Below, in pieces: positions 3,353-32,844 of a stretch of DNA of 32,844 bases. The first letter of the stretch is position 1; every line of letters starts with the position of its first letter. Source of the stretch: Jimgerdemannia flammicorona (lineage: Eukaryota). The stretch is from positions 1 through 32,844 of the forward strand of contig RBNJ01000330.1 in assembly GCA_003990765.1 (NCBI GenBank). The letters run 5' to 3'. The translations under genes were made by a program, and so were the position numbers. The notes beneath the pieces were generated by a model. It saw only the letters and a program-made list of their open reading frames with translations. It ran no database searches and had not been told where the DNA came from.

Positions 3353-3412
3353 GAAGGATAGTCTGTCCCAGACTGTTCTTCAGTCATCATCCCAATAGGC
3401 ATAGGCTGAATT

Positions 3413-8490: not shown

Positions 8491-8503
8491 TGATTTTGAA
8501 ATC

Positions 8504-8521: not shown

Positions 8522-8523
8522 AA

Positions 8524-8948: not shown

Positions 8949-8982
8949 CCACTATGTATATATATGTAAGGTGAGGTGGGTG

Positions 8983-9468: not shown

Positions 9469-9650
9469 ATGTTATATGTAAAATGTGTGGGATGATGATG
9501 TGTAGCAGTGTGAGTTGGCAGTGCCGAAAGAAAGAACTCAGCCCAAATGAAGTAAAAAGGGGGGTTATGGATGTGGAAATGTGAGCGGAGTAGATGATAG
9601 AAAGGTGCCGAAGGCTTAATAGAAAGGCCGCGCCCAATGTCGATGATATG

Positions 9651-10014: not shown

Positions 10015-10039
10015 GTAGAAAAAAAGGAATGGGAAATCG

Positions 10040-11047
10040 TTAACCACAAGTAATATGAGTAACAGAACAAGTATTATGAGTTAATGAAGCCCGAAGGTGG
10101 AGAATGCAAGAAATAGGCATGTGAATATAGCCTTTAAATGCCACACTCTCCCACTGACCCAACATCTGAATCTCGTAATCGGATAAACCGGCCGCAGCAG
10201 TATCAGATGTTGCACCAATCCGAAAACTATGCCCAGCATAAAGAAGCAGATTCAGACCAATCCGTGGAAGTAACATGTGAAGACAACTAACGAGATAGGC
10301 CCGAGAGAACGATCAATTCGCGGAACGCCGGAACAGAGGGGTGTCGGGTGGGGCTGGGTGCGCCAGGTAATGAAGGCGAAGTAAGGATACAATGCATGGC
10401 GTGGTGGGATCCATTTTGGCGATAAAAAGTGTTGCACCCTGGCAAAACGGGTCTGTTTTAGAGGCCGGCAGGGTGAGCGTAATATGGGTGGGGTCGGCAA
10501 TGCTAGGTTGAAAGACCACAGAGCTGCGGGACAGCTGGGAAACGGGATCGAAAGACCTGTCCCACGTAAATTCGCCAGAGCAAAGAAAGCCGACATATGC
10601 AAGCGACATCGTGGTCATAAGATGCAGATCGTCATAATCAGATAGCTGAAGCAAACTGATAAGACTGCGAAGAATACCGAGCATGATAGAAAGCCGAGGT
10701 CGAGTTGGGCATATGCCTAGCCACCACTTCACGCCATGCATCACTTGGGGAAGTTGGTGAAGACTGATGAATGGATCGGCAAAACTGGAGTTGATGTGTA
10801 GAGAACGAACAGCTGAGAGGTAACATTTGATTGTGGATGGTTGAAGCCGTCACAAGGCCAAGCTACAGACCCACCGCACTAGCACCAGTTCGGATGCGGG
10901 CAAAGGCCCGCCGGAGGCATGATTACCGCCATAGAGATTGCAGAATTGGAGGAAGCTGTGTTGTCCTGAAGAGTATGAGCGGCGCGTTGATTTTGCCAGT
11001 CCGAACCACAAAAAGAAGGCAACGATGGGTGGAAGCGCAGAATGCAA
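10040..11047 (-). pseudogene. Ngaro tyrosine recombinase with N-terminal SAM-like domain
   Basis: A single frame with two TGA stops (10850, 10313): GLAKSTRRSY; GFL(C)SGEFT (catalytic R mutated); SKTDPF; YAGHSFRIGA; LGQWES.AFKGYI. Confidence 0.95.
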
Positions 11048-11079
11048 ACGATACCAATCGTGGTCAGGAGCGTCTGAGC

Positions 11080-12720
11080 TTATGGGGCAAGACGACGGAA
11101 ATGAGGAAGATCAGCGCGGGATAAAGCATCAGCAATGCCGTTATCGGACGTCGAGATGAATATAGCACGAAGTTGAAAAGCGTGATGCACCATTTGAAAA
11201 TAGAGCTGGTGGATAAGTTCCAGCAGAAGAGGGTTGTGTGAAGAGCCCGAGTTGATAATAGCGACGACCGCCTGATTATCAGAATGAAGCAATATATGGT
11301 GAAAACACCATTGAGCGCCCCAGGTAGCAGCAGCAGCGACCACGGCGTAAAGTTCCTTGAACTGAATGTCGCGTGAGGCTATATCGGGAGGCCAGGGAGT
11401 GGAAAACTATTCGCTATTGAAATGTGCACCAAAGCCTTAGATCCCGCTGGCGTCTATCCATAATTGTGCATCAGGCTCGTGGAACCATGCCACCGGATAT
11501 ATAACGGAAATGCCATTCCAGTGGGGTAGGATTTCGAGCCACCAATGAATGTCGGCATAGAATTCCTCATTCAGTGAGATATGGAATGAGGCGTTGCCGG
11601 AAAGAAGGTCGATAAACCGCCGCAGGAATGGGCGGCCCAGTGGAATGATTTTACAGGCAAATGCCAAGGAACCAATCAGAGACTGCAGTTGAGGGCATGT
11701 ACATAACGTGCACGATAGCCACTGCTGAAGGGTGGCGAGCAACGTGTCAATCTTGCCGAGAGGCAGGCAGGCTTCCATAGCCATTGTATCCAATTCGATG
11801 CCCAGAAAGACGAGTGACATTGTCAGGCCTTCGACCTTGCACTCTTGAATCGACCAGCTGAGATGACAACAGATAGCAAGAAGTAAACATAGGTCGGAGA
11901 GGGCAAACGGCTGGAGCGGTGGTGAAACGAGGAGAAAATCGTCGATGTAGTAGATGAGCGCGCATATGTCATGATGGTGGGCGATCCATGCAAGAAGTTC
12001 CGCAAAAAGGTTGAAAAGAAATGGTGATGAGGATGCACCAAAAGGAGTGAACCGATTGAAATAAAACTGCCCCGACCACTCGAAACCCAGCAACTCCCAA
12101 TCCGTAGGATGGATGAGAATATGACAATATGCATCGGTGAGGTCGACCTTCGATAGAAGACATCCCTGGCCAAAACGACGAACCAGGTCCAAAGCCTCGT
12201 CGAACTTAATGTAAGAGAGCTGGAAGGCATCGGTATCTATGCCGGTATTCACCGAATCGCCGTGACAGGGCCAAGAAAGGTCGTGAATACGACGCCATGC
12301 GCTATTAGAATTCTTCTTCACGACGGCACTGAGAGGAGATGAGCGAAAGCATTCGAATGGAGGGGATGAGAACGGGCCACAAATTCTACCAGCAGCAACT
12401 TCCCGCTCAATGTCAGACGTGATTGCTTCCGGGTGGTCGAGAGCGGAGCAATGATTATAGGACAGCAGGTGCCAACGAGGCCCATCAAAGCCGAGAAGAG
12501 CGCCTTGAGTAATAGTGGTGATGGCAGCCTGAGCTACCCGCGGGGCAGGATACAACTGGAGCTCACGCGCCCATGCGACAGAGCGAAGAGCAGAAGAAGG
12601 AAGAGGAAAACGACATAGAATGTCTTGAGCAGCTTCGTTGAGAGGGGCGGTAAATGGGTGGCAGAGTAGGGTATTTGGAGCAGCCGGGGGTATGTGTAAA
12701 GAATAAATAGGGGCGAGTTC
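11080..12720 (-). pseudogene. Ngaro pol: reverse transcriptase plus RNase H
   Basis: WRRIHDLSWP, KVDLTDAY, PFGASSSP, YIDDFL, FLGIELDT, WIDASG, DIQFKELY, SDNQAVV, NGIADALSR in one frame, with stops at 11437 and ~11408. Confidence 0.95.
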
Positions 12721-13985
12721 CTAGAGGCGAGACGATGGATTGTGGGAGCATCGATACCACGGATGATCACTATTACAGCGAGAACAGGAATGCACATAAG
12801 GGCATCCTTTTCTATTGCACCCAGGATCCTTCATGGGTGATCCATCGAATAGAATGCCGTTGTATGCCCGACAAGTAGACTGTTGAGAGGCTTTCTCGGT
12901 AGATGAAGCGGAGGAGCCATCAGTAAGACGTAGCCCCCATTGTACGTTGCGAGACTTGAAGGGCTTAAGCGGATTAGATGTAGAGGTCGGAGTTCGCGGA
13001 TGTTGATGTAGACTAAGGATCATAAAGAGGTTGGGGTCGCACTGGGCCCAGTGCTCGCACCATATCAAAGAAACACCATCGTTCGCGATCTTCGCCAGTC
13101 GTTTTGTGTGAAAGGAGACATGATAATCGAGAAGCACAGACCAATACGACAACGTCGATAGTAAAATAAAATCCGCGGCATATGAAAAGAATGGAGTAGG
13201 ATCGGTGAGGCCCGGATACGTGTCATGAAGAACGCTGAAATACGTAAGCAAGGCAGCGAGGAAAGCAGGGACATCCGGAAGATCTTTGATAAGGGATGGC
13301 GGCTTTCGAAGAATAATCTGGGCACCCGATTCGTCAAACGTTTCGATGAATTGAGCATCAGGAAGACCACCGATAGAAACGACATTTCGCTCTAAGAAAT
13401 GGCCGAGCGACATGGCAGTGAACAAATTGTCGATGACCATGGCCAACAGCCATTGATTAACATGGGCGTATTTTAAAGAGAGATTGACACCTCAGACAAT
13501 GGTATGGGCAGAGATGACAGAAGGAGGTATAGGGATGGACTCACCCTGGGGATTACCAGCAGGGCCGTGAATGCCAGTGGACCGAACCGAAGGAATGTCG
13601 GTAAGGGCTGGGATGAGGATGGGAATGCGAGAACCGCCGAAAGAGAGGCAGTAGTGCGATCGATAAAGGCTTAATCGATGATGGGAGATGCGTCCTGACC
13701 AGAAATGGCAGGAACTGCACTAGCCGGTGCCGCCAAAGATACGATGTCAGGGCGAGAGTGTAAGAGCTGAAAAAGTTCATTGAACTGATGGTCTTGTATG
13801 GATGCATGCTCTTGGAGCTGAGCAACGCTGGCTTCAATGGAAACATCAGAGGCCGGTGTGCTGAAAAAAGCTGGTCCGGCTGCCATAGTACTAGCGGGAG
13901 CCTTGGATGCGGCATGCGCTGATAGATGCGTGATTCGGCGGGGTGCGGAAGTAGAGTGATCAGGGAGGGTGGTGAGATAATCCAC
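12721..13985 (-). pseudogene. Ngaro gag-like ORF1 with C-terminal Cys/His zinc-finger cluster (start approximate)
   Basis: C-terminal CRAYN...CNRKGCPYVHSCSRCNSDHPWYRC is typical of DIRS/Ngaro ORF1. The upstream part is broken by stops and one frameshift. Confidence 0.85.
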
Positions 13986-14177
13986 GAGGATAGCAACATT
14001 GGGGTTCTCGCTATCAGATTCCAGGTCATCTTACAGAAAACGGAGCACATGCTCGATGAAATTAATGTCCAAGCGGAAAGGGCAGGTGGCAGAGCCCAGG
14101 TCGTGTTGGCCCTTCAACATATGGGAAGGGTCGTATTGACACAAAAGGCAGGAATTTGCGGAGAGGACTATGGTAAT

Positions 14178-14426
14178 GTAATGAAATGCATACGAATGTA
14201 CGAAAGCACAAAAGCATAAGTGTAAAGCGCATACGAAGTAATGTTGGGTGAATGGTAGAATTACATATAGAAGTAATGCACCTACCACGCTAGTACCAAA
14301 AAAGGAAAGACTATGCCTGATTTAGAAATGCCTTAGACAAACAATGGTGTTGAAACATTTTGGGTGCTATACGCCCAAGACCTTCCTGCATTCATTGACC
14401 TATGGTCTCGAGCGAGCCCCCTCATT
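14178..14426 (-). repeat. Ngaro split direct repeat A1 (249 bp), 5' terminus
   Basis: Direct repeat of 8983-9235. Confidence 0.92.
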
Positions 14427-15538
14427 GTAGCGGCAATTTGTATGTATGTGAATGGGTTCCTTCTTGGGTCAACTGGGAATACTACAATTTGTGTAGTGAG
14501 ACAATTTCCAAAAGTGTGCGATTTCTGGGTGATGGCTTTGGTGCAATGATCTCTGTATAGCACGATGATCTTGATGCAATGATCTCTGTATAGTGCGACT
14601 GGTTCCTTATGCGGATGTTCTGATAATTTGGCAGATAACTCAATTTGTCTACTGGGAATGGAGGACGGCACGGATTCTTCCATATTGGGCTCACTGGGAA
14701 CAAATGAATAACTCAGTGGTGGATAATTTAGATAACTCGGTTAATCTGGATATCGCGAATCAGGCTCTTCTGGGAATACAGATAACTCGGGTGGTGTGAG
14801 TTCTCTGGGAATGCGAATAACTTGAAAATGGCAGATGACGCAGATTCTCCGGAATCGGCGGGCTTCTGGGAAATAACTCGGAAGGCGCAGATTCTTCTAA
14901 ATCGGCAGCTTCAACTGAGGATACGGCAGATAACTTAAAAACGGCGGATAACTTGGATTCTTGGCAAGTTACGTCAAAGACTGGCTCCACTGCAAAGTTG
15001 CGTCAGAAAGACTGGCTTGTGGCAAGGAAGGCAGGCTTTTCTGGGATTCTTCAGGCTTATCTGGCAAGCGAACCAAGGTTTTCTCTTCAAAACAGACTCA
15101 TTCTTTGTATCGGAAAGTGGATCGGAGTGGGGAAATAAGCTCACAATCTCCTAGCAGTGGCTGTAGAGTTCCTCTCGAAATGTGGTAGGCAGATTTGTCT
15201 TTTTGCTTTAATTTCAGACTGAGGTTTATTCACTATTGTCTCTGGGGTAATTTATACATTGTGGTTGCTATCTGGTTGCTATGTGGCTAACTATAGATTT
15301 GCTATCTATGGTAGGTGTACAGAGTCTGTATGGTGTACAGGACCTATATAGTGTACAGAGTCTATATGGTGTACAGAGTCTGTATAGGTAAACAGACCCT
15401 ATCTGGTATGTTCTGCTAATTATACAGTTTCCATAGCAATGGTTGCTGGTTACTATGCTATGTGTTCAGGTCATCTGACTAATTGTTCATGTCATCTAGC
15501 TAAGGTATAATTTGGGTAGTATGTCTTGGTTTGTCACA
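14427..15538 (-). repeat. 5' portion of the family A 5' LTR
   Basis: Aligns with 2235-3340, ends ...TTGTCACA, and is followed by TSD ATAG. Confidence 0.95.
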
Positions 15539-17474
15539 ATAGCCTGGGAGATCTTATAAAATTACCACCAGTAGGCATCTATATCAAATAGATTCCATCT
15601 GTAAGTACAACTGTTCAATCTCTAAATGAAGTTCAAGAAGAGTATCTGAGACTATGCTAACTATATTGATGATCTGGCAAATCAAGTAAATTTCCTTTCT
15701 ATGCTAACATATCTTATCAAGGATGAAGACAAGGTTCTAGTCCTTATATATGATCTTTCCAAGATATATAATATAGTTGTCACCACTATGAAAACTATTA
15801 GACTATAAATATATCATTATGAGTCTCCTGAATGAGAAATTAAGGCTAGATGGCAATGATAATGAAAATAATGAAAAAATATTCTACAGAGCATATAAAT
15901 AAGGCAAAGAAAAACTGAATAAAGGATGAGGGCAAAACCAGTAGTATGATGGTCAATGAGCTAAATTTGATAATAAGTACTTCTACTGTAATAAGTATGA
16001 ATACTATAAGCAAGACTACAACTATAAGAAGAAAGAAAAGAGTGGTCAAGGTAAGTAACATAAACAGATATCAATGTAAGCTATATGCTGAGTATTTATA
16101 TATATCATAAAGAAGTCTGGCTTATGGATTCTGGTGCAATATAGTATATGAAAGTATACTATAAATAGCTCTATATATAAGAAGTTTGAGCACTATATAT
16201 CTCTCAAATTAGGTAACAATAATATCATTTATGCTCAAGGGAAGGGAAATATCAGTAATTATCTATATAGGAATATTGATGAATCCTCAGACATCTTTAT
16301 AGATATATTATATATACTAGATATAGATAAGAACCTCTTCTCAATAGGCTGGAAAATAGCTTGAGGAGATAAAGGAGTAAATAGATATAATGTGATCAAT
16401 CTAAAGAACAATTTGGAGCTAATATATATATCAAAAAGGGGAAATCTATGTGTAATTAATATTATACTGAGTTGTATATTATCTATACATTCTACAATAG
16501 TAACTGATACCTGACATATATAGTATGAATACTTGAAACACATTGGCAAGATAAGCTTTAAATAGATGATAAAAAGTAAATATATATATATAAATTACCA
16601 AACTATATACTATCTGATTTCAGATTTTGTAATAGATATATATATAGTAAATAAGACTTTCTAGTAACTATTTCTATAATGAATAAAGTGAGTGATGGGC
16701 ATTCTCAATATGATATATATGGATATCTGTAGTCCTATGTATGTATACTTCAACATACTTAGAGAAGAGGTACTTTATTACCTTCATTAACAATTATACT
16801 TATAAATTCTATATATACTTTTTTATAGTAAAGAATGAGGCATTTGAAAAATTCCAAGATTTCAAGACAATTATGAAAAACAAAATGGAATATAAAATAT
16901 AGACCCTATGCTCAGATAATGGTAAGAAATATATCAATAAAGCCTTTAGATAGTTCTTGAAGGAGTATAGTATCTAATACTCTATAATAGCTCTCTATAT
17001 ACTTAAACAGAATGGTATGGCAAGACATGATAATTGAATAGTAGTAGAGTTGGCTTAAACAATAGATGAATGGCTGGCTTACTATCTTTTAGGCTGAAGC
17101 AGTGAATATAGTAGCATATATCCAAATCATTATATTTCTCAAGCTCTAAGTAAGGATTTTGGCAGATTTAGTAATAATTAGCAATTTAGAATAATAGTAA
17201 TCTTACTATTAAAGAATTGTAGAATAGATCTAAGCCCAATATCTTGCACCTATAAATATTTAGAAGTGAGACTTATGTCTTAAATATGAGTAATAATGGA
17301 GATAAATTTTAGCCTAAAGTAGATAAGTACATACTCCTTAGATATAATAGAGTAGTATATAGATTATGGAATCTGCAGAAATAGCATATAGTCATCTCTC
17401 CATTCAGTTCAAGGAAATCAAAGAGTAGGAAATTTGAATGAAAATTTCTATTTCTATAAACTCAATAGTACTAC

Positions 17475-18970
17475 TGTGATAAACCAAGACATACTACCCA
17501 AATTATACCTTAGCTAGATGACATGAACAATTAGCCAGATGATGTGAACACATAGCATAGTAACCAGCAACCATTGCTACAGAAACTGTATAATTAGCAG
17601 AACATACCAGATAGGGTCTGTTTACCTGTACAGACTCTGTACACTGTACAGACTCTGTACACTATACAGGTCCTGTACACCATATAGACTCTGTACACCT
17701 GCCATAGATAGCAAATCTATAGTTAGCCATGTAGCAACCAGATAGCAACCACAATGTATAAATTACCACAGAGACAAGAGTGAATAAACCTCAGTCCGAA
17801 AAGTTGAAGCAAACCAAAGAAGCCTCTAAAGATTGAGCATTGGTCCCTTTTCCCCACTCCAGTCCACTTTCTGATACAAAGATTGATTGGTTCACTTGCC
17901 AGATAAGCCTGAAGTTTGCCGCCAAGTTCAAGGAAGAACTTCGCTGCTGTTTCCAAGTTAGAAAGCCTAAAAGAAAGCCGCCTTGCTCAAGCCAGTTTCT
18001 GATGCAACTTTGCAGTGAATCTGTTCGCGCAAACGAAGCCAGTCTTTAACGTAACTTTGCCATGAGACCCTTTCCCAGCCAAGCTGCCGATTCAGAAGAA
18101 TCCGCGCCATCGTATTCCCAGAAGAGCCCACCAATTCAGGAAGAATCTGCGCCATCCGAGTTATTTCCCAGAAGCCCGCCGATTCAGGAGAATCTGCGTC
18201 ATCCGCCGTTTTCAAGTTATCCGCTATATTCCCAGTTGAAGCCACCATTCCCAAGTTATCCGCATTCCCAGAGAAATCCGCACCATCCGAGTTAATTCCC
18301 AGTTGAAGCCGTCGTTTTCGAGAAACCCACCGATTCAGGAGAATCTGTGTCGTCCGCCATTTCCAAGTTATCCGTGTTCCCAGAAGAGCCGATTCGTGAC
18401 ATCTGAGTTATCTGAGTTATCTGAATTATCCACCGCCGAGTTATTTGTTGTTCCCAGTGAAGCCCGAGTTATTGAGTTATCCGCCGCCAGTATAATTCCC
18501 AGTGGACCACTCTAGGAAGAATCCGCGCCATCCTCTATTCCCAGTGAGCCGAATCGAGTTATCCACCAAATTATCAGAACATCCCACATAAGGAAGCCCG
18601 CACTACACAGAGATCGTCACGCAGTAATCGCAAAAGGAGAACCGCCAAATTGCCAGACTGTCACAAGATTATCGCACTACACAGAAATCACCCGCTACTC
18701 AAGAAGGAAACCGCTCATGCTACACACAAATTCTGCCATTCCCAGTTGACCCAAGAAGGAAAGACACAAATCTCTGCTATACCTAGAGATCTGTCCCAAT
18801 AAGGAAACCACTCACAGATATTCAGTTTTGACTATTATACCGCTAAACACCAAGGACCTCAGGAATCTTAGAACATTTTGTTGCTTTTTGACAAAGTAAC
18901 TGGGGGCTCAAGCCAAACTACATCAACCCCCAACCTTGTAATTTGCCTCCATTGAGCCAGGCATGTTATA
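17475..18970 (+). mobile_element. Solo LTR of a family A subfamily (1496 bp) inserted in the copia relic
   Basis: Both ends match the reverse complement of 2043-3340; TSD CTAC at 17471-17474 / 18971-18974; the internal repeat region is expanded. Confidence 0.93.
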
Positions 18971-21900
18971 CTACTAATAATATCTATGCCAATTTTAAAT
19001 AATAGTAAAATAGTATATATATCAGTACTAGTATAACTCATATATATACCAACAAGGCTTTCAGAGCTAAGAATTACAGAAATTATGAATGAGGAAGATG
19101 ACAAGGATATCTCTCTAAAAGGTAAGAAAACATACAAATCTAGATTACAAAACAAAGTCAAAGTAGATTTAGGAGATTATTGAGACAGATATTATATAAA
19201 CTATATCAGTAAGTATACCTATATAGTAATGACTAGTGAGCTAGAAAACAATGATGAAGCCATACACTCAAATGATAAAAAAGAGTGAAAAAGACTATAG
19301 ATAAGAAATATGATTTACTCATTAAGAATAATATATGAAATCTAGTCTCTCTTCTGACAAATCAACAAGTAATAGAATTTTACTAAGTATATAAAATCAA
19401 ATATAATAGTAATGACAACATAGAACAGTATAAGATCCAATTGATAGCAAAGGAGTATTTATAAGAATATAGTATAGACAACAATGAGTCCTGCTCTCTA
19501 GTATTCAAACTTACTTTACTTAGAATACTTCTTGTGATCTGAGCTAAATGCAACTATAAAATCAACTAAATAGATATTAAGACAGCCTTCTTAAATGGAA
19601 ATATAGATACAGAGCTATATATCTATTAATTATAATAATATAAACTATACAATGATGAGCAAAAGAAGCTTCTATACAAGTTATATAGAGATCTCTATAG
19701 TATTATATAAATAATAAGACTGTGGAACCAAAAATCAACAAATATCTCTTAAGTAACAGATTTAAGCATTATGAGACTGATATATATATATACATTTAAC
19801 AATATCCTCAGGATAGTATATCTAGGAATTTGGATCTATAATATTATTCTGGTCAGTATAATAAGTGAGATTATAATATAAAGGTGGATAGTTCTTCTGA
19901 TAGTAATTTTGAATAAACTCCCTATTTGTCTCTTTCTTTTCTTAACTGAGTAGACTGTTTTCTTAGTTAAGTATAGATTTAGGTCACTGTAGTCTTTACT
20001 GTTGCTTTCTTCCTTAAAGTCTTTAATAGAGTGAGCTTTAGTTTTCTTATACTAGATTGTACTCTTTTGATTTGGTGGCTCTGAGTCCATTTGGTCACTT
20101 TTTCTACTATTACAATCTGTATTATAGTATCTGAAAATCCATAATAGAAGTATTGAATTTGAGCTCTATCTCAGAATAGATATCTTCATTCTTCTTATAT
20201 CTAATATATAACTCCTATTATCTCTAGATGAGTAGTTTTGGTTTCTTCAGAGTATGTAACTTCTATTATCTTATAGATAGCTCTGATATTTACATATTGT
20301 AAGTATTTCAATTTATTTAACCAATCAGTCCAACTTAGAGTTGAGGTCATGGATTTCATTTCTCTCTTTCTTCTATCCCTTGACTGACTTTGCTTTTTCT
20401 GGTTTTTTATATACTTAAAGATATCCTTATAGGGCTTTACCCAAGAGTTCTTTCTTATCATCTTTCTTATTATAATTTCTCTTGGTAGTTCCTTGTCTGA
20501 TATTATAAAATTCTTAAGCTCTATCTACTTATTCTTTAGGCTTTCTAATATCTATAGTATAGATATATTGGGTGATATTTGAAGGAATTCTATTTACAAA
20601 GATAATTAAACCTATGGTATTCTGGTTAATATTATTGAACTCAGCTACATATATTCTATTCTAGATTCTAATAATGAATACTCTGGGTGATTTTTTGAGA
20701 TTTATCTATATCTCTAAAATAGATAATTAGACCTTATAATAGATTTCATTTTCTGCATATTTTGTAATAAGCTATTTAGCCATAGCTTCATATTCTCTAT
20801 CTCAAGATATTGCTTTCTAAATAGCAATTCTAAGGTCTGAGTATATATTATTTACAACTTAGTTAAAAATTCCTTTAGATGGTTCTTTGAGTTGGGCTTT
20901 GTAGACAATACTCTTTTTCTAAATAGTAGAATTCTTTAGAGCTATAATTCTTCAATTATATCAAAAAATTCTCTTGAGTCCTCTTTTGGATATGCTGTAA
21001 AGATTAACATTAAGGTGGCTATTTCATCATCACTATCTTTTAGTTCTGATTCTGATTCTAGTTTTCTTTCTAAGTTATTACTAAAGTTCAGAATACTTGG
21101 ATATCTTGAAAATAGAGTTATTGGTCTTAAGTGAGATATAGTAGATTGGAGGTATTCTTAAGAATACTGGACTGAAAGGATCTGCTACTCTAGATAATAG
21201 TGAAATTGATAGTACTTTACTAGAAAACTGATATTAGGTAATATATTCTTACAAGTTTATAGAAAGTTTGAGTATGATATTCTATATTCTCTGGCTGATC
21301 AGGTCTGTTAGTAGTAAGTCTGCTGGTGCTTCTAGAGTATTTTCAAGCTAAACACTTAGTTATAGAACTGGTACTGATTGTAGATTCTGTGCTATACTAA
21401 CTTCTTATTAGGATTCTTTTGATGCTGAGTAATTGAAAAGTCTTAAGGTAATTACTTCTCTTTTTGTCTAAATATAAATAATGACTTATTCTCCTATTTC
21501 AAATATATCTAGTTTGGTTGTTGAGTTTTTATAAGCTGAAAAGTCATCCAGATTTTAGAAATCTTTCTAGTTGAGCTCACAAATATAATATACTAACTCA
21601 ATGAATATAAATTATAAGATTGAGACTATTATTAGATTGGTTTGAGCTCTCAATTACTTTGTCAAAAGTAATAAAATATTCGTAGTTTCTTTCAAAAATA
21701 GATACAATATAAGAGGGTTGCTTTTTAAGGTAACTGTTACATAGTTCTGGAAGGGTTTTCTGAAAGTTCTGGATATTCTGGAAGACTGTTTTCTTATAGT
21801 CAAGATTAATTTCATATGGAGTACATCCTCTATGCTTATTGATTTCAAGATTGAGTTGACATCTCAACCAAAGTCCTTTTTCGGACTAGTTCTGGATGTT

Positions 21901-23319
21901 CAGGATTTTCTGTATTTCAGGAAGTTCAAGAAACTAAGACCAGCTTAGTTGAATTGGCGTATCGCTGCAGACAATACCCAATTAGGAAATTTCGTGATAG
22001 GGTTAGGAGTGGGACCTAACAGGAAGTGGATTTACTTAAGGGTAGTTTGTGGGTTATTGAATAAGTTTATTTGCTATTCATGATATTGCTATACTAGGAG
22101 TAGTTGTGTGAAGGGATATTGTGGGGAAGTATTCAGGAATGTTCTTGTGTGTTCGAGTCTGAGATTCTAAGGTCTGGAGGAGGGGATATTTATACTAATG
22201 AGGGGCTATCTGGACTATGCTGAATATGGATGTAGCACTAAGTGCCTTGCTGAGTCAGAATGCAGTCATGTAGTACAAGTGTGATCTGATATGTCAAGAG
22301 ATCATCTGATGGCTGAGTCAGTTCACAGTCACATCGTACAAGGCTAATCTAACTATACTATGACTGCCAGGCTAATTATGGGTTTAGGCACTATGTATCT
22401 GGGTAGTCCTCAATGATATCACTATTGATTGCATCATCTCTGATGAAGTAGTCATTTAGGAAAAGTGGTTCACAGATTACTTCTCCTTGTTTGCTGAGGT
22501 AGTAATACATTGGGACTTTGTCTCTATCTCACAGGATAGCATCGTCTGTCTTGTAGGCTGGATAAGGTATTGGTAGATAAAGGATGAGTATATCATCTTC
22601 ACTTTCATTGGATTCACTGTCTGTGTACCTTCTATAGGTTACAGCACTATGAGTTGCAGGATTGTAGTAAGCAGGTGGCTGTAGTTCATGTCACTCGTAC
22701 TCAGGTGGTGGAGTGGTTCAAGGGTTGTCTGGAGGTATAGGTTGTGTTCTCCGGTCTCTTCATTGTAGTTGAAGTAATTGGGGGTGAAGGCAGGTTGGTA
22801 TTCGTGCCAGTGGTCATTGTCCCAATAAGTCTCATATACAGTTATGAACTGTTGTAAGTTCATCGGTAAGGTTGGCAGAGTGATCAGGGTTGGCAGAGAT
22901 CCTTGGCTAGAGGTCATGTCAGTGTCAGAGGGATCATTGTCTTCTGCTTTGTCTTCATCAAAGTGGATTATATCATAGATGTCTTTCATGGCATATCCAA
23001 CTTGGGGCATTTGCAGGATATGATTGTTGGGGTGTGGGAAGGTTCTGTCTCTGGTTTTGACGTACTCAAGGTACTTGTGGTTGAGTTCTTGTATCATGTC
23101 ATCGATTTGGCCATAGGACAGGGTAGTAACCATTTCACTGGTGGTAACTTGGAGGTGGGGAATAAAGGTACTATACTCATAGAAGAGTTCTCGATGTTTG
23201 CGGGCAATGAGTTTCTGGTGTTGAGACATCTGGGTAATGTCTGTATCATGGTGGTGTTCGACTATGTCTTCCAGGAGGCGGCTGATCTGGTAGTAGCTTG
23301 AGTGTAAGCACACAACCTC

Positions 23320-23560
23320 CAAGCCACTGAAATTACATGTCACCCTCTGAACAAGCCACTGAAATCACATGCGACCTCTGAACAAATCTGGAAATCACAT
23401 GCGACCTCTGAACAAATCTGGAAATCACCTGTTGATCATGAAGCTGAGTCAAACCAAAGTCACAGCACACAAAGCTGAGTCAAACTGAAGTCACAGAACA
23501 CAAGATCTATACAAATGGAATCTTACCAATCAGGATCAAATGCATATATACCGAGCACTG
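23320..23560 (+). promoter_or_regulatory. Putative promoter 1 of the family B unit: ~30-bp tandem repeats, two TGAGTCA (AP-1/Gcn4-type) sites, TATATA
   Basis: About 3.5 copies of GAAATCACATG.GACCTCTGAACAA; TGAGTCA at 23445 and 23476; TATATA at 23545-23550, ~70 nt before the ATG at 23619. Confidence 0.55.
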
Positions 23561-23618
23561 AGATATGTTGAAACAGAGAACCAAAACAAACAACCACAAA
23601 CTTCCAAAACACACAAAC

Positions 23619-24716
23619 ATGACCACTGAGATCTACAACCGAATCCATACTGACATTTGGAATGCCATTGTCAACCGAGCCACACCCCCTCTGCCCCTTA
23701 TGAATATCCATAGCCTAGCACCTCTCTACTTCATGGAAGCCTGATGGAATACCCTGAACATGCTTAGTGAGACCCACCGAATCGGAAAAATCTCAAGCTA
23801 CTACCAGATCGGCCACCTCCTAGAAGACATGGTTGAACACCACCATGACACAGACATTACCCAGATGTCTCAACACCAGAAGCTCATCACCTGCAAACAT
23901 CGAGAACTCTTCTATGAGTACAGTACCTTTATTCCCTGCCTCTGAGTTACTACCAGCAAAATGGTTACTACTCTATCCTACGGCCAAATTGATGACATGA
24001 TACAAGAACTCAACCACAAGTATCTCGAGTATGTCCAGACCACAGATAGAACCTTCCCACACCCTGATGACCATATCCTGCAAATGCCCCAAGTTGGATA
24101 TGCTATGAAGGATGTCTACGATATAATCCACTTCGACAAAGATGAAGCAGAAGACAATGATCCCTCTGATGCCGACATGACCTCTAGCTAAGAATCTCTG
24201 CCAACCCTGATCACTCTACCAACCTTACCAATGAACTTACAATAGTTCATAACAGTATATGAGACTTATTGGGACAATGACCACTGGCATGAATACCAAC
24301 CCGCCTTCACCCCCGATTACTTCAACTACAATGAAGAGACCAGAGAATACAACCTGTATCTCCAGACAACCCTCGAGATCGAACCAACCACTCCACCACC
24401 TGAGTACGAGCGATATGAACCACAGCCGCCAGCTTACTAAAACCCCGCAACTTATAGTGCCATAACCTATAGAAGATAAGCAGATAGTGAATCTGATAAA
24501 AGTGAAGACAACATACCTATCCTTTACCCACCAACACCTTATCCAGCCTACGAGACAGACGATGCTATCCTATGGGATGGAGATGAAGTCCCAATGTATT
24601 ACTACCTCAGTGAACAAGGAGAAGTAATCTGCAAACCACTTTTCCTAAACAACTACTTCATCAGAGATGATGCAATCAATGGTGATGTCATCGAAGACTA
24701 TCCAGACAGTGCCTAA
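23619..24716 (+). pseudogene. Uncharacterised 365-codon ORF inside the family B unit; acidic, Pro/Tyr-rich C-terminal half with PPEY and PPAY motifs
   Basis: ACAAACATG start; one frame with no indels to TAA at 24714. Five of six internal stops are sense codons in the outer copy; the TGA at 23742 is shared. Confidence 0.75.
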
Positions 24717-24759
24717 ACCCATAAATAGCCTAGCAGTCATAGTATAGTTAGATTAGCCT

Positions 24760-24915
24760 TGTACGACATGACTGTGAACTGACTCAGCAGTCAGACGATC
24801 TCTTGACATATCAGATCACACTTGTACTATGTGACTGCATTCTGACTCAGCAAAGCACTTAGTGCTACATCCATATTTAGCATAGTCCAGACAGCCCCTC
24901 ACTAGTATAAATACC
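24760..24915 (+). promoter_or_regulatory. Putative promoter 2 (retroelement promoter) of the family B unit: two TGACTCA sites plus TATAAATA
   Basis: TGACTCA at 24780 and 24843 within a duplicated ~29-nt unit; TATAAATA at 24906-24913. All are retained in the outer copy (22187-22320). Confidence 0.6.
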
Positions 24916-26590
24916 CCCTCCCCCATACCTCAGAATCTCAGACTTGAACAATCTGAACACAACTCCTGAGCACTTCTCCACAATATCCCTTTACACAACT
25001 ACTCCTAGTATAGCAATATCATGAATAGCAAATAAACCTATTCCATAACCCACAAATCACTCTTAAGTAAATCCATGCCCTGTTAGGTCCTACTCCTAAC
25101 TCCATCATGAAATTTCCTAATTGGGTATTGTCTGCAGTGATACGCCAATTCAACTAAGCTGATCTTAGTTTCTTGAACTTCCTGAAATACGAAAAATCCT
25201 GAACATCCAGAACTAGTCCAAAAAAGGACTTTGGTTGAGACGTCAACCCAATCTTGAAATCAATAAGTGTAGAGGACGTACTCTATATGAAATTGATCTT
25301 GACCATAAGAAAATGGTCTTCCAGAATACCCAGAACTTCCAGAAAACCCTTCCAGAACTATGTAATGATTACCCTAAAAAGCAACCCTCTTATATTGAGA
25401 TTTGTCCAATTCGGTGGGCCTTGCTAAGCATGTTCAAAGCATTCCATCAGGCTTCCATGAAGTAGAGGGGTGCTAGGCTATGGATATTCATAAGGGGCAG
25501 AGGAGGTGTGGCTCGGTTGACAATGGTATTCCAAATGTCAGCACGGATTCAGTTGTAGATCTCGGTACTCATGTTTGTGTGTTTGGAAGTTTGTGGTTGT
25601 TGTTTGTTTTGGTTCTCTGATTTGACGTATCTCAGTGCTCAGTATATATGCATTTGGTCCTGATTGATAAGGTTCCGTTTATGTGAATCTTGTGTTCTGT
25701 GACTTCATATTGACTCAGCTTTGTGCACTGTGACTTTGGTTTGACTCAGCTTCGTGATCAAGCAGGTGATTTCCAGATTTGTTCAGAGGTCACGTGTGAT
25801 TTCAGTGGCTTGTTCGGAGGGTGACATGACTTAGAGGTTGTGTGCTTACATACAAGTTCTGTTTGTATAATGTAGATGATTTTTTTGAGTTTTCTTATTA
25901 AATAAAATCAGCATAATAGAGTAAATTCTTATATTTTTTCAGAAATAGTAGAGTTCTTGAATGGCAGATAGTAGTAGACTTCAACTTCTTCAAATAGCAG
26001 ATCTTCAGGCTTAGTCTGATAAGTATACTAAATCAGATATTCTCTTTTTTATTTTGAAAAGCAGACCAGAGTGTAAATTTGGAATAAAGTTCACAATCTT
26101 CTTAAAGTAGCTTTTGTGAAGGTATTTCTCTTAAATATTACAATTCTTTTTAGATCAAGTGGCTTTTGGTAGATTTATCTCTTGAGCTATAGTAGGCAGA
26201 CTTATCTTTTACTTTAGATTTCAGATTTCTAGACTGAGGTATAATCATTCTTATCTCTAGGGTATTTTATATATTTGTAGTTACTATCTGATTACTATGT
26301 GACTAATTATAGATTTCTATTTCTAACAATAATTATCTGTTTTAGTTAAGGATATAAATCTTAAATTCTGATATAGTATATAAGCTAGGAATACTTTGTG
26401 TCCTTATTTGACTATCTGAGTTATTTATATAAATTAGCACAGTAGGCCAGTTCTGATTGCCTAGTGTATCTGATATAGTATATGGTTAAATTATAGTGAC
26501 TAACTTAGATAGTAATTTAGTATATTTCTCTGCTGACTTATCATACTATGGATAGTTCAAAAATCAAATAATGACTACCTTCAATGTTTA

Positions 26591-29500
26591 TCTGATATAA
26601 TTCAGATTATACAAACTTCTGACAATACTTAAGACATCATTTTTAAAGAAAAGATTATAATAACATAGCAACTGATGAGCAACCTGAGGAGTATATAGAA
26701 TAGAGTTGCCTCAGTATATTTGACTAGCAGCATGTGAGGAGGAGTTATGACTTGGCAAAGAGTCTGTTGGGTACTCTCTTTGATAGATGAGGAGGTATAT
26801 AGAAGAGGTGGAACTAATAGACAGGAGTCTGAGAGAATGAGTTTCACTGATAAGGTCAAGGTAGGACATCTGGTGACTAGAATGAAGAACTGGCCACAGA
26901 AGGGCAAAGAGTAGATAAGGGCTGCAGGGCCTGGTAGAGAGTCCCATAGTGGCAGTAGCACTAAGACTGGGGGAGTAAGAACTGGGGGAAGTAGGACTAC
27001 TGATGGAAGGGAGACTGCTAATCTGGAAAAAAATTCAAATATAATGACTGATTGTAGGGCTGGGTAGGGGGGAGATATGAGGTCTGAGGATCTGGCTAAT
27101 AGTATTACAGAGCTGATAGTAATGCCATTACTTAAGAAATTAGATGTTCAAATTTGCAATCACACTGTGCTTTCAGAGCATAGCAATTATGGCAAAAATA
27201 ATTCTGAGACTTCTGGCCCAGGAGATGAAAAGAGCAGCTTTGATGAAGTTCCTGAAGAGACTGAAAGAAGTGGAGGTGGGTTTTGATAAAGAGGAGTTGA
27301 TATTGGAGGCATTGAAGAAAGGAGTAATAGTAGATAAAGTGGCAATCTCTATAGCTCAGTGTGTGGACTGAGACATCTGGGTAGTACAACTGGTGATAAA
27401 AAATATACTTTTAGTAAAGAGAAATATAACCAGAAGGCTGATTGTGAATATTATCAAAGAGTATAGAGATATAGTGAATATTAGATTCTAGGTCTGAGAA
27501 GGTATAGAGTTTAGAACTAGAGATGTAGATCTCAGAGTAAGGCTGGCAGACAAGGAGAATACTAAGAAAGGAAGAGATTGGCTGGTGACACTTAAGTGGG
27601 GACCAGTAGAGTACAAGGTCTCCAGAGTGAAGGGGATACCAGAGAAGAAGGAGGACTTGCTAGAGATATTGAAAGACTTGGCTAGAGTAGTAGAGAAGAG
27701 ACTACTGATATAGATGGAGTTTGAGGCTAAGATAGTGGTAGAGATTATAAATAGCAGAAGAGTGTGACTGGATCAGATTACCTGGGAGAAGGCACAAGAG
27801 AGGTAACATCAGAAAGACTTATTGGTTAAGCTGAGAGAGAGGGCAGAGAGAGAGAATACTGCTGAAGAAAGTGGATCAAGAGTAAGTACTTTGGCAGGAG
27901 AGAAGGGAGGGACTCCCATAGTGACTCTGGAGGAGAGTGGAGACTCATAGTAGAGTATAGTGAAAGAGAATGAGGTAATGGTGGAGGAAGTCCAAGTGCA
28001 GTATAGAGTGTCTATAGGAGGGCAGGGGACTGATAAGCTGCAGAATATGCCAGAGGAGGATTAGAACAAGTCAGTTAGGATGAATGCTGAGTGAGGTCAG
28101 GGGGTTTGGAGGCAGGAGATAGTTTTAGGTATTAATGAGATAATAGGAGAGAAGAGGTAATTATTGAAGATGCTGATGAATATTATGATAGATAAGTTAG
28201 ATAAGATAGATTTTCAGATAATTAGTGAAAGGTATTAGGGTGAGATCCTGTGAGGAGAAGAGGTAGTACAGAAGCTTCAAAATGAGCTGTTGGCAGACTT
28301 TTTGGAGGCTGAGGAATATGAGTTAGATAACAATGGGGAGGCAGTGCTTTTGGCAATTTTGAATAACTATACAGCTTATCTGCGAGGATCTAGGAAGGGG
28401 TTAGAGAAGTAACAGATAGTGTGTGAGGAGTACTGGTCTAACATAGAGGCTGTAGATAGTGAAGACTATTAGGAGATCTTAGAAGAACTAGATATATAAG
28501 AGAGAGACAGATGAGCTTGAGGCAAAGTGAAATCTGGATATTGCTGATAATATAATAAGTATGAAATTGTAGAGCAAGTGACTGGTCCTCAAAACATTAT
28601 TTAATATAAATAGTACAATTAGAATCTTTTCTTTAAATATTAATAGTCTATTAGGTATAGTGAGGCATCAGAATATTTTCAGCTAGTTGAAGAGACTAGT
28701 TGTAGATCTGTTCTTACTATAGGATATTAGATATAATGGGGAGTTGGATATGCTGGACTGGATAAGAGGATGGGGGAGTATGGCTATATGGCAGAAATAG
28801 GTGAGTATATTGGTTCAGAAGAGTAAGAGAGACATTGAGGATATTGGACATTGGACATTGGGGAATAGAGTGATGTGAGGAGTGTAGAGAAGACCAAGCT
28901 GGAGCCCTCTGATGGTTGGGTCTGGTCATTATCCAGCAGAAAGGGAAGAGTATATAAAATGGATAAGAGGATTAAAATAGGCCCATACTATAGTAGCAGA
29001 GGAGATTGATTATCTGGGGGAGAACTTTAATATAGTATAAGATGGACAGTTGGACAGAACCAGTAGCAGGAGAGAGATGGCTGAGAGGAGTTGGGATATA
29101 GAAGGCTGGGAGGAGATTGAAAGTCTAAGCTCACTAGTAGATATTGGATATCTTGAGTGGAGAGACTATAGGATCTATACTTACTAGATGGCAGAGCTGA
29201 GTTTGAGAATTGACTGGATCTTAACTGCTGAGTACTGGGGAGCAGATATCTGGGACTCTTTAGAGACAGCTTGGTGCCCATAGTCAGATTATTAGGGTCT
29301 GCTGAATTGTGAGAGGTTCAGAGTAGTGGAGAGAGGTCTGGACATTTGTACCTAAATACTTCATTACTAGAGGGACCCTCCTTATAGAAAAGTAGTAGCT
29401 CTAGAATTATTACCTAGTGGATACAGGGGCTGGTAATTGAGAATCATTGGAGGTATTTGAAATCAGATACTCAATAGTTCTGAGAGGAGACAGGGAGAGA

Positions 29501-30560
29501 GAGGGGTGCTCAGAGGAGGAGACATTTAAGGTGGACTTCTCTGAGATTAGAGAAGCTATTTGTGAAGTGGGCTGATTTGCTGAATAATAGGGAGGAGGAA
29601 GATTGGAGGGTTCAGTGGATCTGACTGGAGGTAGAGGAGCTGAGGAGTCTGCTGCAGTAGGACAAAGAACTACAGGTGAAGGATATGGTAGTACAATTGT
29701 GGTAGCAGGGCTTAGAAGAGAGAGAGAGGTCTACAAAGTTCTTATTGAGGTGGCATTAAGTGAGAAGAGTGAGGCAGCAGTGGGAAGAAGTATTAGATGA
29801 GATAGGAAAGTTAGTAGTTGGTATCTCAGAGATCTTGAGCCAGTTGAGTTCTCAGTAGGAGTGATTGTAGAGTGAGGAGGAGAGTGGGAAGGAGGTACAG
29901 GACATTGAACAATATCTGAAGGATTGGTACTCAAGCTTAGTAAAGAGCTTAGATGAACTTGAAGTATCTGTCTGAGAGGAGAAAATCCATAGAGTATTGG
30001 TAATAATAAGTCCCAAGATAGTCTCTAGAGAGGTTGGGTTACCTTGGGATTTCTGGAAAAGAATAGTGGATCTGTGAATATATAATAAAGTTATTGACTC
30101 AGAAGTATAGAAGGAGAGGTAGCATTAGAGACTTATAGCTCTATTGTATAAGAATAAGGGGAGAAGGGAGGATTGGAAGAACTGGAGGCCAATCGTACTT
30201 CTGGATATAGATTGTTAGCTGGTTTTGAAGATATTAGTGACTAGACTATAAGAGATAGCTCAGCAGATATTGGGAGCAGAGTAGAGAGGCTTTGTTAGAG
30301 ATTATTTAATAATGAGATAGCATGGGTATATAGTGTCATTGTAGGTACTTGTACTGCCAGGATCAATAGTCTGCTAGTATTTCTGGACTAAGAGAAGGCC
30401 TATGATAGAGTCTATCAAGTGTAGCTTATTGGAGTGCTGAAGTATATAGAGATTTCTCCAGAGTTTAGACAATCTTTAATCAGTCTATTAGAAGAGAGTT
30501 ATGTGACTATTTTGATAAATGAGTACAGGGGAGAGTCTTTCCCCCTAGGCAGTAGAGTGC

Positions 30561-30623
<63 letters not shown>

Positions 30624-31967
30624 GTCACTTGGACTTTTGTCACTAATTCTCTATACTCTATCTCTGGAGTCTTTGTTGGACCAGATTAGGTATAAGGTGG
30701 GGGCCTTTCTTGATATATAACATAGTGATAAGACTGGGTACAGTGGAGGTTGTAGTAGTACTAAAGAGAGAAGTAGAATAATATAAGAGATACTTAGATA
30801 CTAAGCTTAACTAGCATAAGGACAAGACTCTGATTCTAGATAGAGAAGTAGTAGGAGGGAATATGATTTGAACAGTTATCTTAGCAAGAGAGAGTCTGGT
30901 ATCTGGGAATCTACTTCTCAGTATACAGTTCCTTATTACTTTAGATATAGTGGAAGCAGTGGCTAATTGAGTAGAGAAATACTCTCCTAAAGTAGGGTAG
31001 CTAATATATCTCTTTAGTAGATAGGATGGTGGTATTGAATATATATTAGCTATCTAAGCTATAGTGTGGGATATCACTTAGACTTCTTAACATAGATAGT
31101 CAAGAGATTATTAGAGATAGTCAGAATATAGATCTGGACATTATGGTAGAGTCAGATTGGCTGGAAGGTATTGATGTTGCCAGTAAACTAGAGAGGAGTG
31201 GTTCTGGTAGATTTTTCAAAGTACCTGCACTGCTTGATGATATGGTGGCTAAAGTGAGCTAGTGAGTTGAGGGGCCAGGAGTGAGTGTCTCTTACATATA
31301 TAGCAAGTGTGGGATATATGGTTCTCTCCCCATAGTATGTCTGATGACCTGCTCTCCCTGGTGGTACTGGAAGAGAGTCAGAAGATGTGCTTTAGAGGAT
31401 TCTGGTGGAATGTGGTAAATAGAGCTAAACAGATTGACCTTTAGTAGCAGAGTAATGAGACTGGGGATCACAGATATAGGGGTGGAATCATCTTCTACTG
31501 AAAGGTATACTGGTAGAAGATTTCAGTCTAAAGGATAACATGGAATATCTTTGGAGGCATGGGGGAGATCTGTGGTCTGAGGCTTAGCAGGGGGTGGGAA
31601 TTAGCAAAAGTGGAACTAGAATAGTATTTGGTCTTAGAGCAAATAGGTGGTAAGGTGACTTCTCTCCAAGTTCAGAGTAGAATGGTAGAGACTCTTGAGG
31701 CAAAACATGATGCTAAATTATTACTTAAGACATTTGATAGAAGGGGGTTCTATGGAGTATGAGAAGTGCCTAAATATTAAGTAGGAGAGAGGAGTAGTAC
31801 AGACTTCTGAACATTGGCTGACAGAATGTGAGATTATAGGAGACTTTTTAAGAGTCATCAAGAGATGGATGAGAGTATGTATATCTGAGCAAGTAGTGGA
31901 TGAGTGGTGGGATGATCTCTGGAGGAAGCTGGTGAGAGGGATTGGTGATAAGCAATTAGATGAGCTC
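26591..31967 (+). mobile_element. Degenerate near-full-length L1/Tx1-clade LINE
   Basis: RT motifs GLPWDFWK (~30037), LLYKNKGRREDWKNWRPIVLL (~30142), FLD*EKAYDRV (~30380), VL[QG]D.LS (interrupted), YLGI (~30900), and C-terminal C..EHWLTEC (~31770-31830). The 5' end is shared with 1-464. Confidence 0.85.
30566..30635 (-). mobile_element. Extremely 5'-truncated LINE insertion: 15 nt of 3'UTR plus A55
   Basis: T55-ATAGTCACTTGGACT matches the tail at 31968-32002 and interrupts the RT QG motif. Confidence 0.85.
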
Positions 31968-32844
31968 TTTTTTTTTTTTTTTTTTTTATAGTCACTTGGA
32001 CTCTTCTTTTATTACACCCATCTATCCCATATAAGTACAGTGAACCCACTCTCTATCTGATCCCCCTAGGGGGGCCCCTCCCCCCTATCTCTTCTTAACA
32101 AAATACCACTCTATCGAATACAATCTCCACCCTCCCACTACTCTGGTCACAGATCCTCGCTACCAAATCTTGATGTTGCCCCCCCAAAGGACTCCAACCT
32201 ATCCACCATTCAGTCATCAGATCCCCCAACAGCTCCTCTCACCTTAAAACCTTCTCCAGCAGTCCCATCTACAACCCCTCCTCAAACACAAAAAGCCAAT
32301 GGCCTGCCAGTCCCATCCAAACTGCTAACACCCACCCAACAGTGAGCCAACTATCACCCACCCCCCCCACTAGCCAATATCTCAAGTCCTCCCAGCAGTC
32401 CCCCTCATCTGCCAGCCTGCGCTCCACACCCAGTCTATTCCCTATTTCTACCCAAAAGTCTCCCAAAACCTCACACCCTCCCAGCCAATGTTCCAGCATC
32501 TGCACCAAACCCCCAGCTTGCTCTACATTGTAATACTCCTTACAATCGAAACAGCCACCATCCACCAGATGCCCAGTGCAGAAATTCAGCATGACATTCC
32601 TTCGCAGCATTCACCACCACACCACCTAGTAATTAGATGAGCTCTGGCTATTTGGGTTAGACTTACTGGATATTGGCTGAATATATTTGAGGATGGTCAG
32701 CAGTTGGCACTTGGGGTACAAGTTGTGAGGTGGAAATTATTAATGTTGGACCTTTGGAATGATTGGTGGTGGCGGTGGAGATCTGGAGGGAGAACTTTGT
32801 AGAAGGCTTGGAGAGAGGTTTTGTAGGCAGAGTGGGGGGTGGGT
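31968..32844 (-). mobile_element. 3' end of a second LINE (ORF2 C-terminal CCHC domain, 3'UTR, A20 tail) extending beyond the window
   Basis: ORF 32269..32610 has CFDC...EHWLGGCEVLGDF, homologous to EHWLTECEIIGDF of the plus-strand LINE; poly(A) at 31968-31987. Confidence 0.85.

Follow-up and report, generated by a model that had tools for sequence, protein, structure and literature searches.

Organization of the locus

The window analysed here is the whole of a 32,844-nt stretch of Jimgerdemannia flammicorona DNA (contig RBNJ01000330.1 of assembly GCA_003990765.1, forward strand). It contains two copies of a 2.1-kb unit that is read here, from its sequence and its flanks, as a long terminal repeat (LTR) of an LTR retrotransposon, and each copy carries within it a reading frame of 365 codons that is a real gene, now decayed in both copies. 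Protein genes inside an LTR are otherwise known mainly from a few retroviruses. The coordinates of the features are collected in Table 1.

The original prediction for this DNA described two copies with TGTAAG...CTTATA ends and 5-bp target-site duplications, and both were recovered, with TTGAG duplicated around copy 1 and TACAA around copy 2. Copy 2 occupies the minus strand in two parts, 25850..25395 and 23302..21708, with copy 1 between them; its terminal sequences are those of copy 1, and its boundaries were set by reading the sequence directly. Over the extent of copy 1 the two copies are 89.8% identical, with 1832 matches, 185 transitions, 22 transversions and 65 gap columns. Within the region of the 30-bp tandem repeats copy 2 lacks 11 and 29 bp. 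The CTTATA terminus is present in the window copies as had been described, with the qualification that its terminal TA is a decayed CA; other copies of the unit end in CTTACA.

Because the flanks of copy 2 match the gag, leader and LTR of the window's gypsy-like element at 68-75%, the order of events was an old gypsy-like element first, then insertion of copy 2 into its 5' LTR, and then insertion of copy 1 into copy 2. Solo LTRs are a common fate of LTR retrotransposons, and each window copy is such a solo LTR, reduced to this state at some stage by recombination between LTRs. As a separate observation, one contig of run X5 joins position 21681 to position 25850 without either LTR copy and with 21 other letters between. 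The joint resembles a paralogous empty site and was not relied on, the flanking match being only 34 letters long at 80% likeness.

Identity of the unit

Words of 31 letters from the unit occur in 16 listed public runs from 11 studies, mostly soil metagenomes (best share 0.23), and none of the 16 is on record as RNA. Four of the runs were aligned to the unit at at least 80% likeness, and loose contig ends were then inspected. Contig pieces matching the unit numbered 4,428, 559, 483 and 420 in the four runs; they ranged from below 90% to above 99% alike, and the changes were almost all transitions. The unit represents a high-copy, long-lived family.

The contig ends also gave the sequences that adjoin the unit in other copies. 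Seven contig ends of run X8 lie directly before the first base of the unit, and their consensus ends in AAGAAGGGGAGAGT (agreement 0.69), which resembles a polypurine tract (PPT). One contig of run X5 has the tract AAGAAGGGGAGAGT likewise, preceding TGTAAGCGCAC. Directly past the end of the unit, one X8 and one X5 contig read CA + ACT + TGGTAGCAGCAG, which resembles a primer-binding site (PBS); this primer-site-like string begins with TGG. In an X5 contig with its loose end at 25392 the unit terminates in CTTACA, with CA instead of TA. Because a PPT-like tract lies before the unit and a PBS-like string after it (both seen in contig ends), and because the termini are TG...CA and the duplications are of 5 bp, the unit is, as far as such sequence features tell, a true LTR of an LTR retrotransposon, in agreement with the earlier reading.

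The PBS string and the PPT string have 0 matches each within the window, and therefore the internal part of the element lies elsewhere. A tRNA scan and an Rfam scan of the window gave no match, and the window has no tRNA gene to compare with the PBS. Among JGI metagenome contigs there were 74 matches to a pattern made from the protein, none of them confirmed, and 0 matches to the PBS string. A pattern made from the homolog P0001 alone (see below) gave 29 matches among GTDB genome contigs and one match in IMG/VR, and again none was confirmed. In run X10, a contig of 9,601 nt with a depth of 368.7 matches window positions 22592-22776 at its own positions 155-349 with about 80% likeness. That part of the window holds codons ~233-298 of the open reading frame (ORF), from its C-terminal part in copy 2, and the contig could be a full-length relative with the gene near one end.

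The 365-codon frame and its homologs

In copy 1 the frame has six internal stops (23742, 23943, 24189, 24243, 24438 and 24477), fewer than chance would give, the counts for the remaining five frames being 15, 34, 9, 23 and 26. Copy 2 reads Q, Q, Q, Y and Y at five of the six positions, and only the TGA at 23742 is common to both copies. Copy 2 has damage of its own, having lost 10 bp in one deletion, gained 4 bp in one insertion and acquired three private stops. It had been proposed that combining the copies opens the frame except for the TGA at 23742; this held in that copy 2 is open at five of the six stops, and it has to be qualified for the private stops and indels that copy 2 adds. The accompanying guess that this TGA arose from CGA proved sound, as the outside homolog P0002 has Arg at this codon. 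P0002 is a protein of 128 aa that is 86% identical and starts at the same Met.

P0002 is one of only two homologs that were found among 5.8 billion clustered proteins and 1.84 billion representatives. The other, P0001, is an intact protein of 247 aa that spans residues 115-365 and is identical at 161 of 247 positions (64%). Two further candidates, P0003 and P0004, were judged spurious, being internally repetitive with weak matches in multiple stretches. No further paralogs of the protein were found in the window by tblastn.

P0001 and copy 1 differ at 86 positions. Single transitions account for 23 differences with P0001 on the T/A side and for 22 with the window on the T/A side, and the remainder are 24 single transversions and 17 multi-step changes. 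As 41 of the 86 are thus transversions or multi-step, the divergence is old and not a product of decay. By the ratio of stop-making to replacement changes in the window (32:300), 86 neutral replacements should be accompanied by about 9 stops. The probability that the P0001 lineage stays open under neutrality is about 0.01, a rough value that counts about half of the 9 stops and is affected by the preference of gene callers for open frames. These comparisons show the 365-codon frame to be a real gene that has now decayed in both copies. The expectation that every solo LTR would still carry the gene stands for both solo LTRs of the window, in which the gene is present in decayed form.

Selection and decay

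The differences between copy 1 and copy 2 fall unevenly on the codon positions of the frame, with 42, 12 and 71 at positions 1, 2 and 3. Transitions per C/G site were 0.197, 0.072 and 0.310 at the three positions (chi-square P = 1.3e-6), and 0.160, 0.167 and 0.181 in the non-coding LTR read in an arbitrary phase. Mutation here is heavy in transitions and in CpG changes, and the test of selection was normalised in stages and then stratified by dinucleotide context. In the CpG context, 33 of 39 synonymous sites and 26 of 53 non-synonymous sites had changed; in the CpA context, 14 of 51 and 14 of 81; and in the other contexts, 16 of 113 and 3 of 157, so that synonymous sites have the larger changed share in all three classes. 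The last class, which is the least touched by decay after insertion, has a ratio of about 0.13. Synonymous, non-synonymous and stop-making changes numbered 63, 43 and 6, compared with expected counts of 43, 61 and 8, and 0 of 20,000 within-context permutations reached the observed synonymous count. The Nei-Gojobori distances (non-synonymous, dN, 0.060; synonymous, dS, 0.40) were not relied on, as dS is overstated under this mutation bias.

It follows from the context-stratified ratio that part of the divergence between the copies arose under purifying selection, at a time when their parent elements were still active and the LTR already contained the gene. The original prediction had called for dN/dS between subfamilies with CpG and CpA sites excluded; the comparison made here, between the two window copies, shows purifying selection outside these contexts as well. 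The gene was kept open by purifying selection while the family spread and decayed after insertion, mainly by C-to-T changes at CpG.

The proportion of sites that differ between the copies is 0.60-0.63 at CpG, 0.12-0.20 at CpA and 0.07-0.11 in other contexts. The CpG observed/expected ratio is 0.00-0.06 in the old repeats of the window, 0.36 in the 2.1-kb units and 0.94 in a young element. The decay pattern fits deamination driven by CpG methylation. Repeat-induced point mutation in the Neurospora sense, which is directed at CpA, was considered and rejected, since the C-to-T changes concentrate at CpG and not at CpA.

Table 1. Positions of the LTR copies, of the features within them and of the neighbouring host element in the window
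Feature	Position	Strand	Remarks
Copy 1 of the 2,092-bp LTR (solo LTR)	23303..25394	+	Ends TGTAAG...CTTATA
Left target-site duplication of copy 1, TTGAG	23298..23302		
Right target-site duplication of copy 1, TTGAG	25395..25399		
Copy 2, 3' part (ORF codon ~59 to LTR end)	21708..23302	-	87-93% complementary to copy 1
Copy 2, 5' part (LTR start, repeats, first TATA, ORF codons 1-59)	25395..25850	-	
Target-site duplication of copy 2, TACAA	21703..21707		
Target-site duplication of copy 2, TACAA repeated	25851..25855		
30-bp tandem repeats at the 5' end of the LTR	23320..23428	+	Copy number unequal between the copies
31-bp tandem duplication	23441..23503	+	One TGAGTCA per unit (23445, 23476)
TATATA, candidate promoter 1	23545..23550	+	69 nt before the ATG; conserved in copy 2; putative function
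365-codon ORF and stop	23619..24716	+	ATG 23619, TAA 24714; 6 internal stops in copy 1
TGA common to both copies, codon 42	23742..23744	+	Arg in the outside homolog P0002
TPPPEYERYEPQPPAY, two PPxY motifs (PPEY, PPAY)	24390..24437	+	In both window copies, absent from P0001
Two TGACTCA sites (24780, 24843)	24780..24849	+	Upstream of the second TATA box
TATAAATA, candidate promoter 2	24906..24913	+	Would be the element's own promoter, near the U3/R border; putative function
AATAAA, candidate poly(A) signal for both transcripts	25031..25036	+	Only one in the unit; putative function
Gag, leader and LTR end of a decayed relative of the gypsy-like element of the window, target of copy 2	19928..21689	-	68-70% identity to 6867-8631
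LTR of the same gypsy-like host element, other side of copy 2	26158..26320	-	73-75% identity to 2958-3107 and 15156-15305

Properties of the protein

The protein matches no Pfam family; that it resembles neither gag, pol nor env had been noticed from the sequence at the outset. No fused or longer forms of it were present among 816 candidates, and the best hit of a sequence profile search of the PDB had E = 0.4. In the ESM Atlas there was no usable feature match for P0001 (the Atlas model has a predicted local distance difference test score, pLDDT, of 0.39), and P0002 gave weak, mixed matches only, with 131-155 of 256 features in common. An AlphaFold2 model of the whole protein, made from 6 rows, has a mean pLDDT of 33.6, and a model of the N-terminal 128 residues, made from 4 rows, has a pLDDT of 55.5 and five helices. 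A Foldseek search with this weak N-terminal model gave nothing at E <= 0.001, and no conclusion on the fold was drawn. In the low-confidence models, helices are predicted over residues 1-141. Only the composition of the protein gives a firm description. Residues 1-145 have a net charge of -6, and residues 146-365 have a net charge of -36 with 10% Tyr and 11% Pro. Variable acidic linkers separate the conserved blocks. The tail is strongly acidic, rich in Tyr and Pro, and probably disordered.

Promoter-like modules and a model of the gene

The order of motifs that had been described for the unit (tandem repeats, two TGAGTCA, TATATA, the frame, two TGACTCA and TATAAATA) was found with every motif in its place. 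ACAAACATG occurs at 23613, just ahead of the ATG at 23619. Copy 2 keeps both TGAGTCA sites (25711 and 25742) and both TGACTCA sites (22251 and 22314). Eight of the nine TGASTCA sites in the window lie inside the two units, more than chance would give, and each copy has conserved all four of its sites. TGA(G/C)TCA is the basic leucine zipper site of the AP-1/Gcn4 type. In run X10 the depth climbs from 14.9 to 1485 at the 24912 bin; this run is only guessed to be RNA, and the step was not used as evidence of expression.

The frame lies within the LTR, and it would lie within U3 if transcription starts after 24906. The placement in U3 is suggested because TATAAATA sits 489 nt before the LTR end and is followed about 120 nt downstream by AATAAA, which would give an ordinary R-U5. 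In the model proposed here, each LTR would carry two similar promoters, each made of two TGA(G/C)TCA sites followed by a TATA box. The downstream promoter (24906) would start the genomic RNA, which would place the gene in U3 and leave about the last 455 nt as R-U5. From the upstream promoter (23545) would come a separate mRNA for the gene, about 1.5 kb long and with its 3' end at the AATAAA (25031), and this mRNA could come from any LTR, solo LTRs included. The product, with a helical N-terminal part and an acidic Tyr/Pro-rich tail, would act in trans as a protein-protein adaptor through the motifs of its tail; for example, the tail might recruit a host factor to the promoter or to the particles of the element. 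Taken together, a high-copy retrotransposon LTR with a selected 365-codon gene, a U3 with two promoters and a trans-acting adaptor product make up the reading that is favoured here, with moderate confidence.

A further step, which is put forward tentatively and may well be wrong, is that the product of the LTR gene acts in trans and that every LTR, solo LTRs included, expresses it from the gene's own promoter, so that the LTRs, scattered as they are, would together make up a gene family in support of the element family. Such support could consist of the activation of the twin promoter or of the blocking of host silencing. If true, a trans-acting LTR gene would be to a retrotransposon what regulatory genes such as tas or sag are to retroviruses, and to our knowledge it would be the first of its kind outside retroviruses.

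Several points weigh against the favoured model. P0001 and P0002 are fragments on contigs of 998 and 1,180 bp, in which the LTR context of neither is visible, and gene calling itself favours intact ORFs among homologs. A full-length element, with a pair of units around gag-pol, was not seen in the window or in the run contigs. The PPT evidence comes from 8 contig ends and the PBS evidence from 2, in runs from one organism. The promoters, the poly(A) site, the assignment to U3 and expression are inferred from motifs only. The proposed function finds no support from any family, Atlas match, PDB sequence match or fold. The N-terminal part is not basic (net charge -6), which speaks against direct DNA binding. 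Finally, P0001 keeps neither of the two PPxY motifs of the tail, reading PLSEY and PLAY instead, and has no other PPxY or LPxY.

Alternative explanations

Three other readings concern the unit and the place of the gene in it. The unit could be no LTR at all but an independent, small mobile element, transposed as a 2.1-kb piece together with its gene. Both window copies are indeed single, their 5-bp duplications are clean, and no internal part of a retroelement lies nearby; however, the solo state is the usual fate of LTR elements, PPT-like and PBS-like flanks are common to other copies, the unit ends in TG..CA, its terminal inverted repeats do not exceed 6 bp, and the frame contains no transposase or reverse transcriptase, all of which makes an independent element highly improbable. 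It is also very unlikely that the frame is a passenger, that is, a captured host gene or part of one that does not serve the element. Pieces of host genes are known to be captured by LTR retrotransposons in plants, and the protein resembles no retroelement protein. Constraint is nevertheless seen between two LTR copies that have the gene at the same place, and therefore acted after any capture; moreover, the gene is complete, with a start, a stop and promoter-like motifs inside the LTR, and the libraries searched, which may lack the host proteome, gave no homolog that is longer or looks like a host protein. The genomic RNA might instead start at the first TATA box, in which case the gene would lie in a long R as a 5'-proximal cistron ('ORF0') ahead of gag. 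The two promoters share one architecture, no upstream ATG is conserved ahead of the ATG at 23619, which is also the start of P0002, and plant elements offer precedents of very long R regions and of additional ORFs upstream, such as Retrosat2, in which R is about 2 kb and ORF0 lies upstream of gag-pol (PMC3485330). This arrangement is nonetheless rather unlikely: the positions of TATAAATA and AATAAA already give an ordinary R-U5, a 1.1-kb ORF before gag would be expected to hinder the translation of gag, and the depth of run X10 (of guessed kind) rises 100-fold exactly at the 24912 bin.

A fourth reading concerns the tail; the original prediction had suggested that the protein is perhaps a ubiquitin-ligase adaptor or an anti-silencing protein. 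PPxY and LPxY motifs are described as binding the WW domains of Nedd4-type ligases (PMC2824488, PMC2958808). In a stricter form, the acidic tail of the LTR protein would be a specific PPxY ligand for WW domains of the Rsp5/Nedd4 type. The motifs themselves were confirmed in the acidic C-terminal half, with PPEY and PPAY 10 residues apart in both window copies and YPPTPYPAY also present in copy 1. The count of two PPxY compares with 0.28 expected from composition (composition-preserving shuffles, P ~0.03), which is a mild signal. Of the tail motifs only PPTPYPAY is conserved, which does not count as a PPxY. Each of the three Pro losses in P0001 is a change of the C-to-T type that could be late damage, so that the change may have run in either direction. 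As the PPxY motifs are missing from the diverged homolog, the adaptor idea in its ubiquitin-ligase form is weakened and not ended: it keeps the two motifs of both window copies, and it loses by their absence from P0001 (a sample of one), a lack of conservation that the original prediction had itself named as counting against it, and by the lack of a match to arrestins or any other family. A dedicated PPxY ligand is on this evidence improbable.

Comparison with known systems

In a comparison by position, the closest analogue of the LTR gene appears to be the sag gene of mouse mammary tumor virus (MMTV), whose frame is inside U3. In both cases a complete frame of about 320-365 codons lies within the LTR and is thus carried by every LTR copy. 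The two differ in that there is no sequence or family similarity, that MMTV belongs to a vertebrate virus setting, and that the frame described here has TATA-type promoter motifs directly upstream of it inside the LTR. A relationship to Sag, Nef or Bel was looked for and gave no Pfam match, no PDB match below E = 0.4 and no Foldseek match at E <= 0.001, the last with a low-confidence model. The nef gene of human and simian immunodeficiency viruses and the tas and bet genes of foamy viruses are accessory genes at the 3' end or in U3 that are expressed apart from gag-pol. Foamy viruses use a second, internal promoter, and Tas has an acidic activation part. In contrast to the LTR gene, nef, tas and bet overlap the LTR only partly and belong to enveloped viruses, and no homology to them was found. 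A transactivator role of the LTR gene would be a guess from composition only.

Gene-like units inside LTRs have also been reported from non-autonomous elements. The LTRs of Cassandra, Helenus and Ajax carry 5S rRNA-like or other small-RNA-like units with a promoter of their own, as reported in 10.1101/2023.07.14.548913 and PMC10886601. The likeness is that of an independent gene-like unit with its promoter inside the LTR; the Cassandra-type units differ in being short RNA genes of RNA polymerase III that serve transcription, whereas the unit described here has a 1.1-kb protein-coding gene with motifs of the RNA polymerase II type. ORF0 of Retrosat2, RIRE3 and RIRE8 is described as lineage-restricted, of unknown function, without outside relatives and evolving faster than pol (PMC3485330). 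It is similar in being an orphan ORF, in plant Ty3/gypsy elements with very long LTRs; it differs in lying between the 5' LTR and gag-pol, so that solo LTRs are without it. Arrestin-related adaptors and the L-domains of retroviral Gag share with the LTR protein tandem PPxY motifs in a disordered, proline-rich stretch, and differ in that the LTR protein has no arrestin or Gag family match and that its motifs are not kept in P0001.

Among the listed and examined matches in open-access full text, fungi included, none concerned a non-retroviral LTR retrotransposon with a protein-coding gene in its LTR. Among the matches listed, ORFs inside an LTR concerned MMTV only. A Talaromyces paper uses 'LTR ORF' for pol frames only, and comparable phrases in PMC6875170, PMC10787394 and PMC12037069 occur there only in unrelated senses.

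LTRs are usually seen as control regions that code for no protein, and a solo LTR is regarded as an inert scar or a stray promoter. A gene under selection in the LTR would alter this view, and each LTR-LTR recombination would leave a potential gene copy behind. Accessory genes in U3 would then extend beyond complex retroviruses. Repeat masking would conceal an entire protein family of this kind, of which only two fragments are present in libraries of billions of proteins. The gene would also offer a route to asking what extra function a retrotransposon needs where the host methylates and mutates repeats.

Other repeats in the window

The gypsy-like element of the window extends over 2040-15542 on the minus strand and contains gag, an aspartyl protease and a dUTPase domain (Pfam E = 1.3e-23). 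Its reverse transcriptase breaks off just before the PPT (AGTGGGGGCTGA, ~3340-3355), and most of pol is deleted. The LTRs of this element are about 1.3 kb long (TGTGAC...ATTACA), and it has the PBS-like string TTTGGGGGGTCAAC. A third, inverted copy of the 1.3-kb LTR at 17471-18973 is 94-95% complementary to 3014-3340, 15212-15542 and 2040-2187 and has the same 18-bp tandem repeats of the GGTGTACAGAGTCTGTAT type as the other two.

The 5' LTR of the gypsy-like element is interrupted by a second retroelement (~8716-14426, minus strand), in which the only match is to reverse transcriptase (Pfam RVT_1, E = 1.2e-9) and which has long open frames of 427 and 256 aa. Its terminal repeats pair 8983-9235 with 14178-14426 and 8717-8948 with 9237-9468. 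We suspect this element to be DIRS-like; it gave no recombinase match. Its CpG observed/expected ratio of 0.94 indicates that it is much younger than its surroundings.

In the region 27000-32844 one strand is strongly G-rich, with a GC skew of +0.35 to +0.53, and there are T runs of 55 nt (30566-30620) and 20 nt (31968-31987). Pfam gave no match at E <= 0.001 over 27000-31200. A peptide resembling reverse transcriptase (..EKAYDRV..) can be seen by eye in one frame of the region, and 27000-32844 may be a badly decayed non-LTR element.

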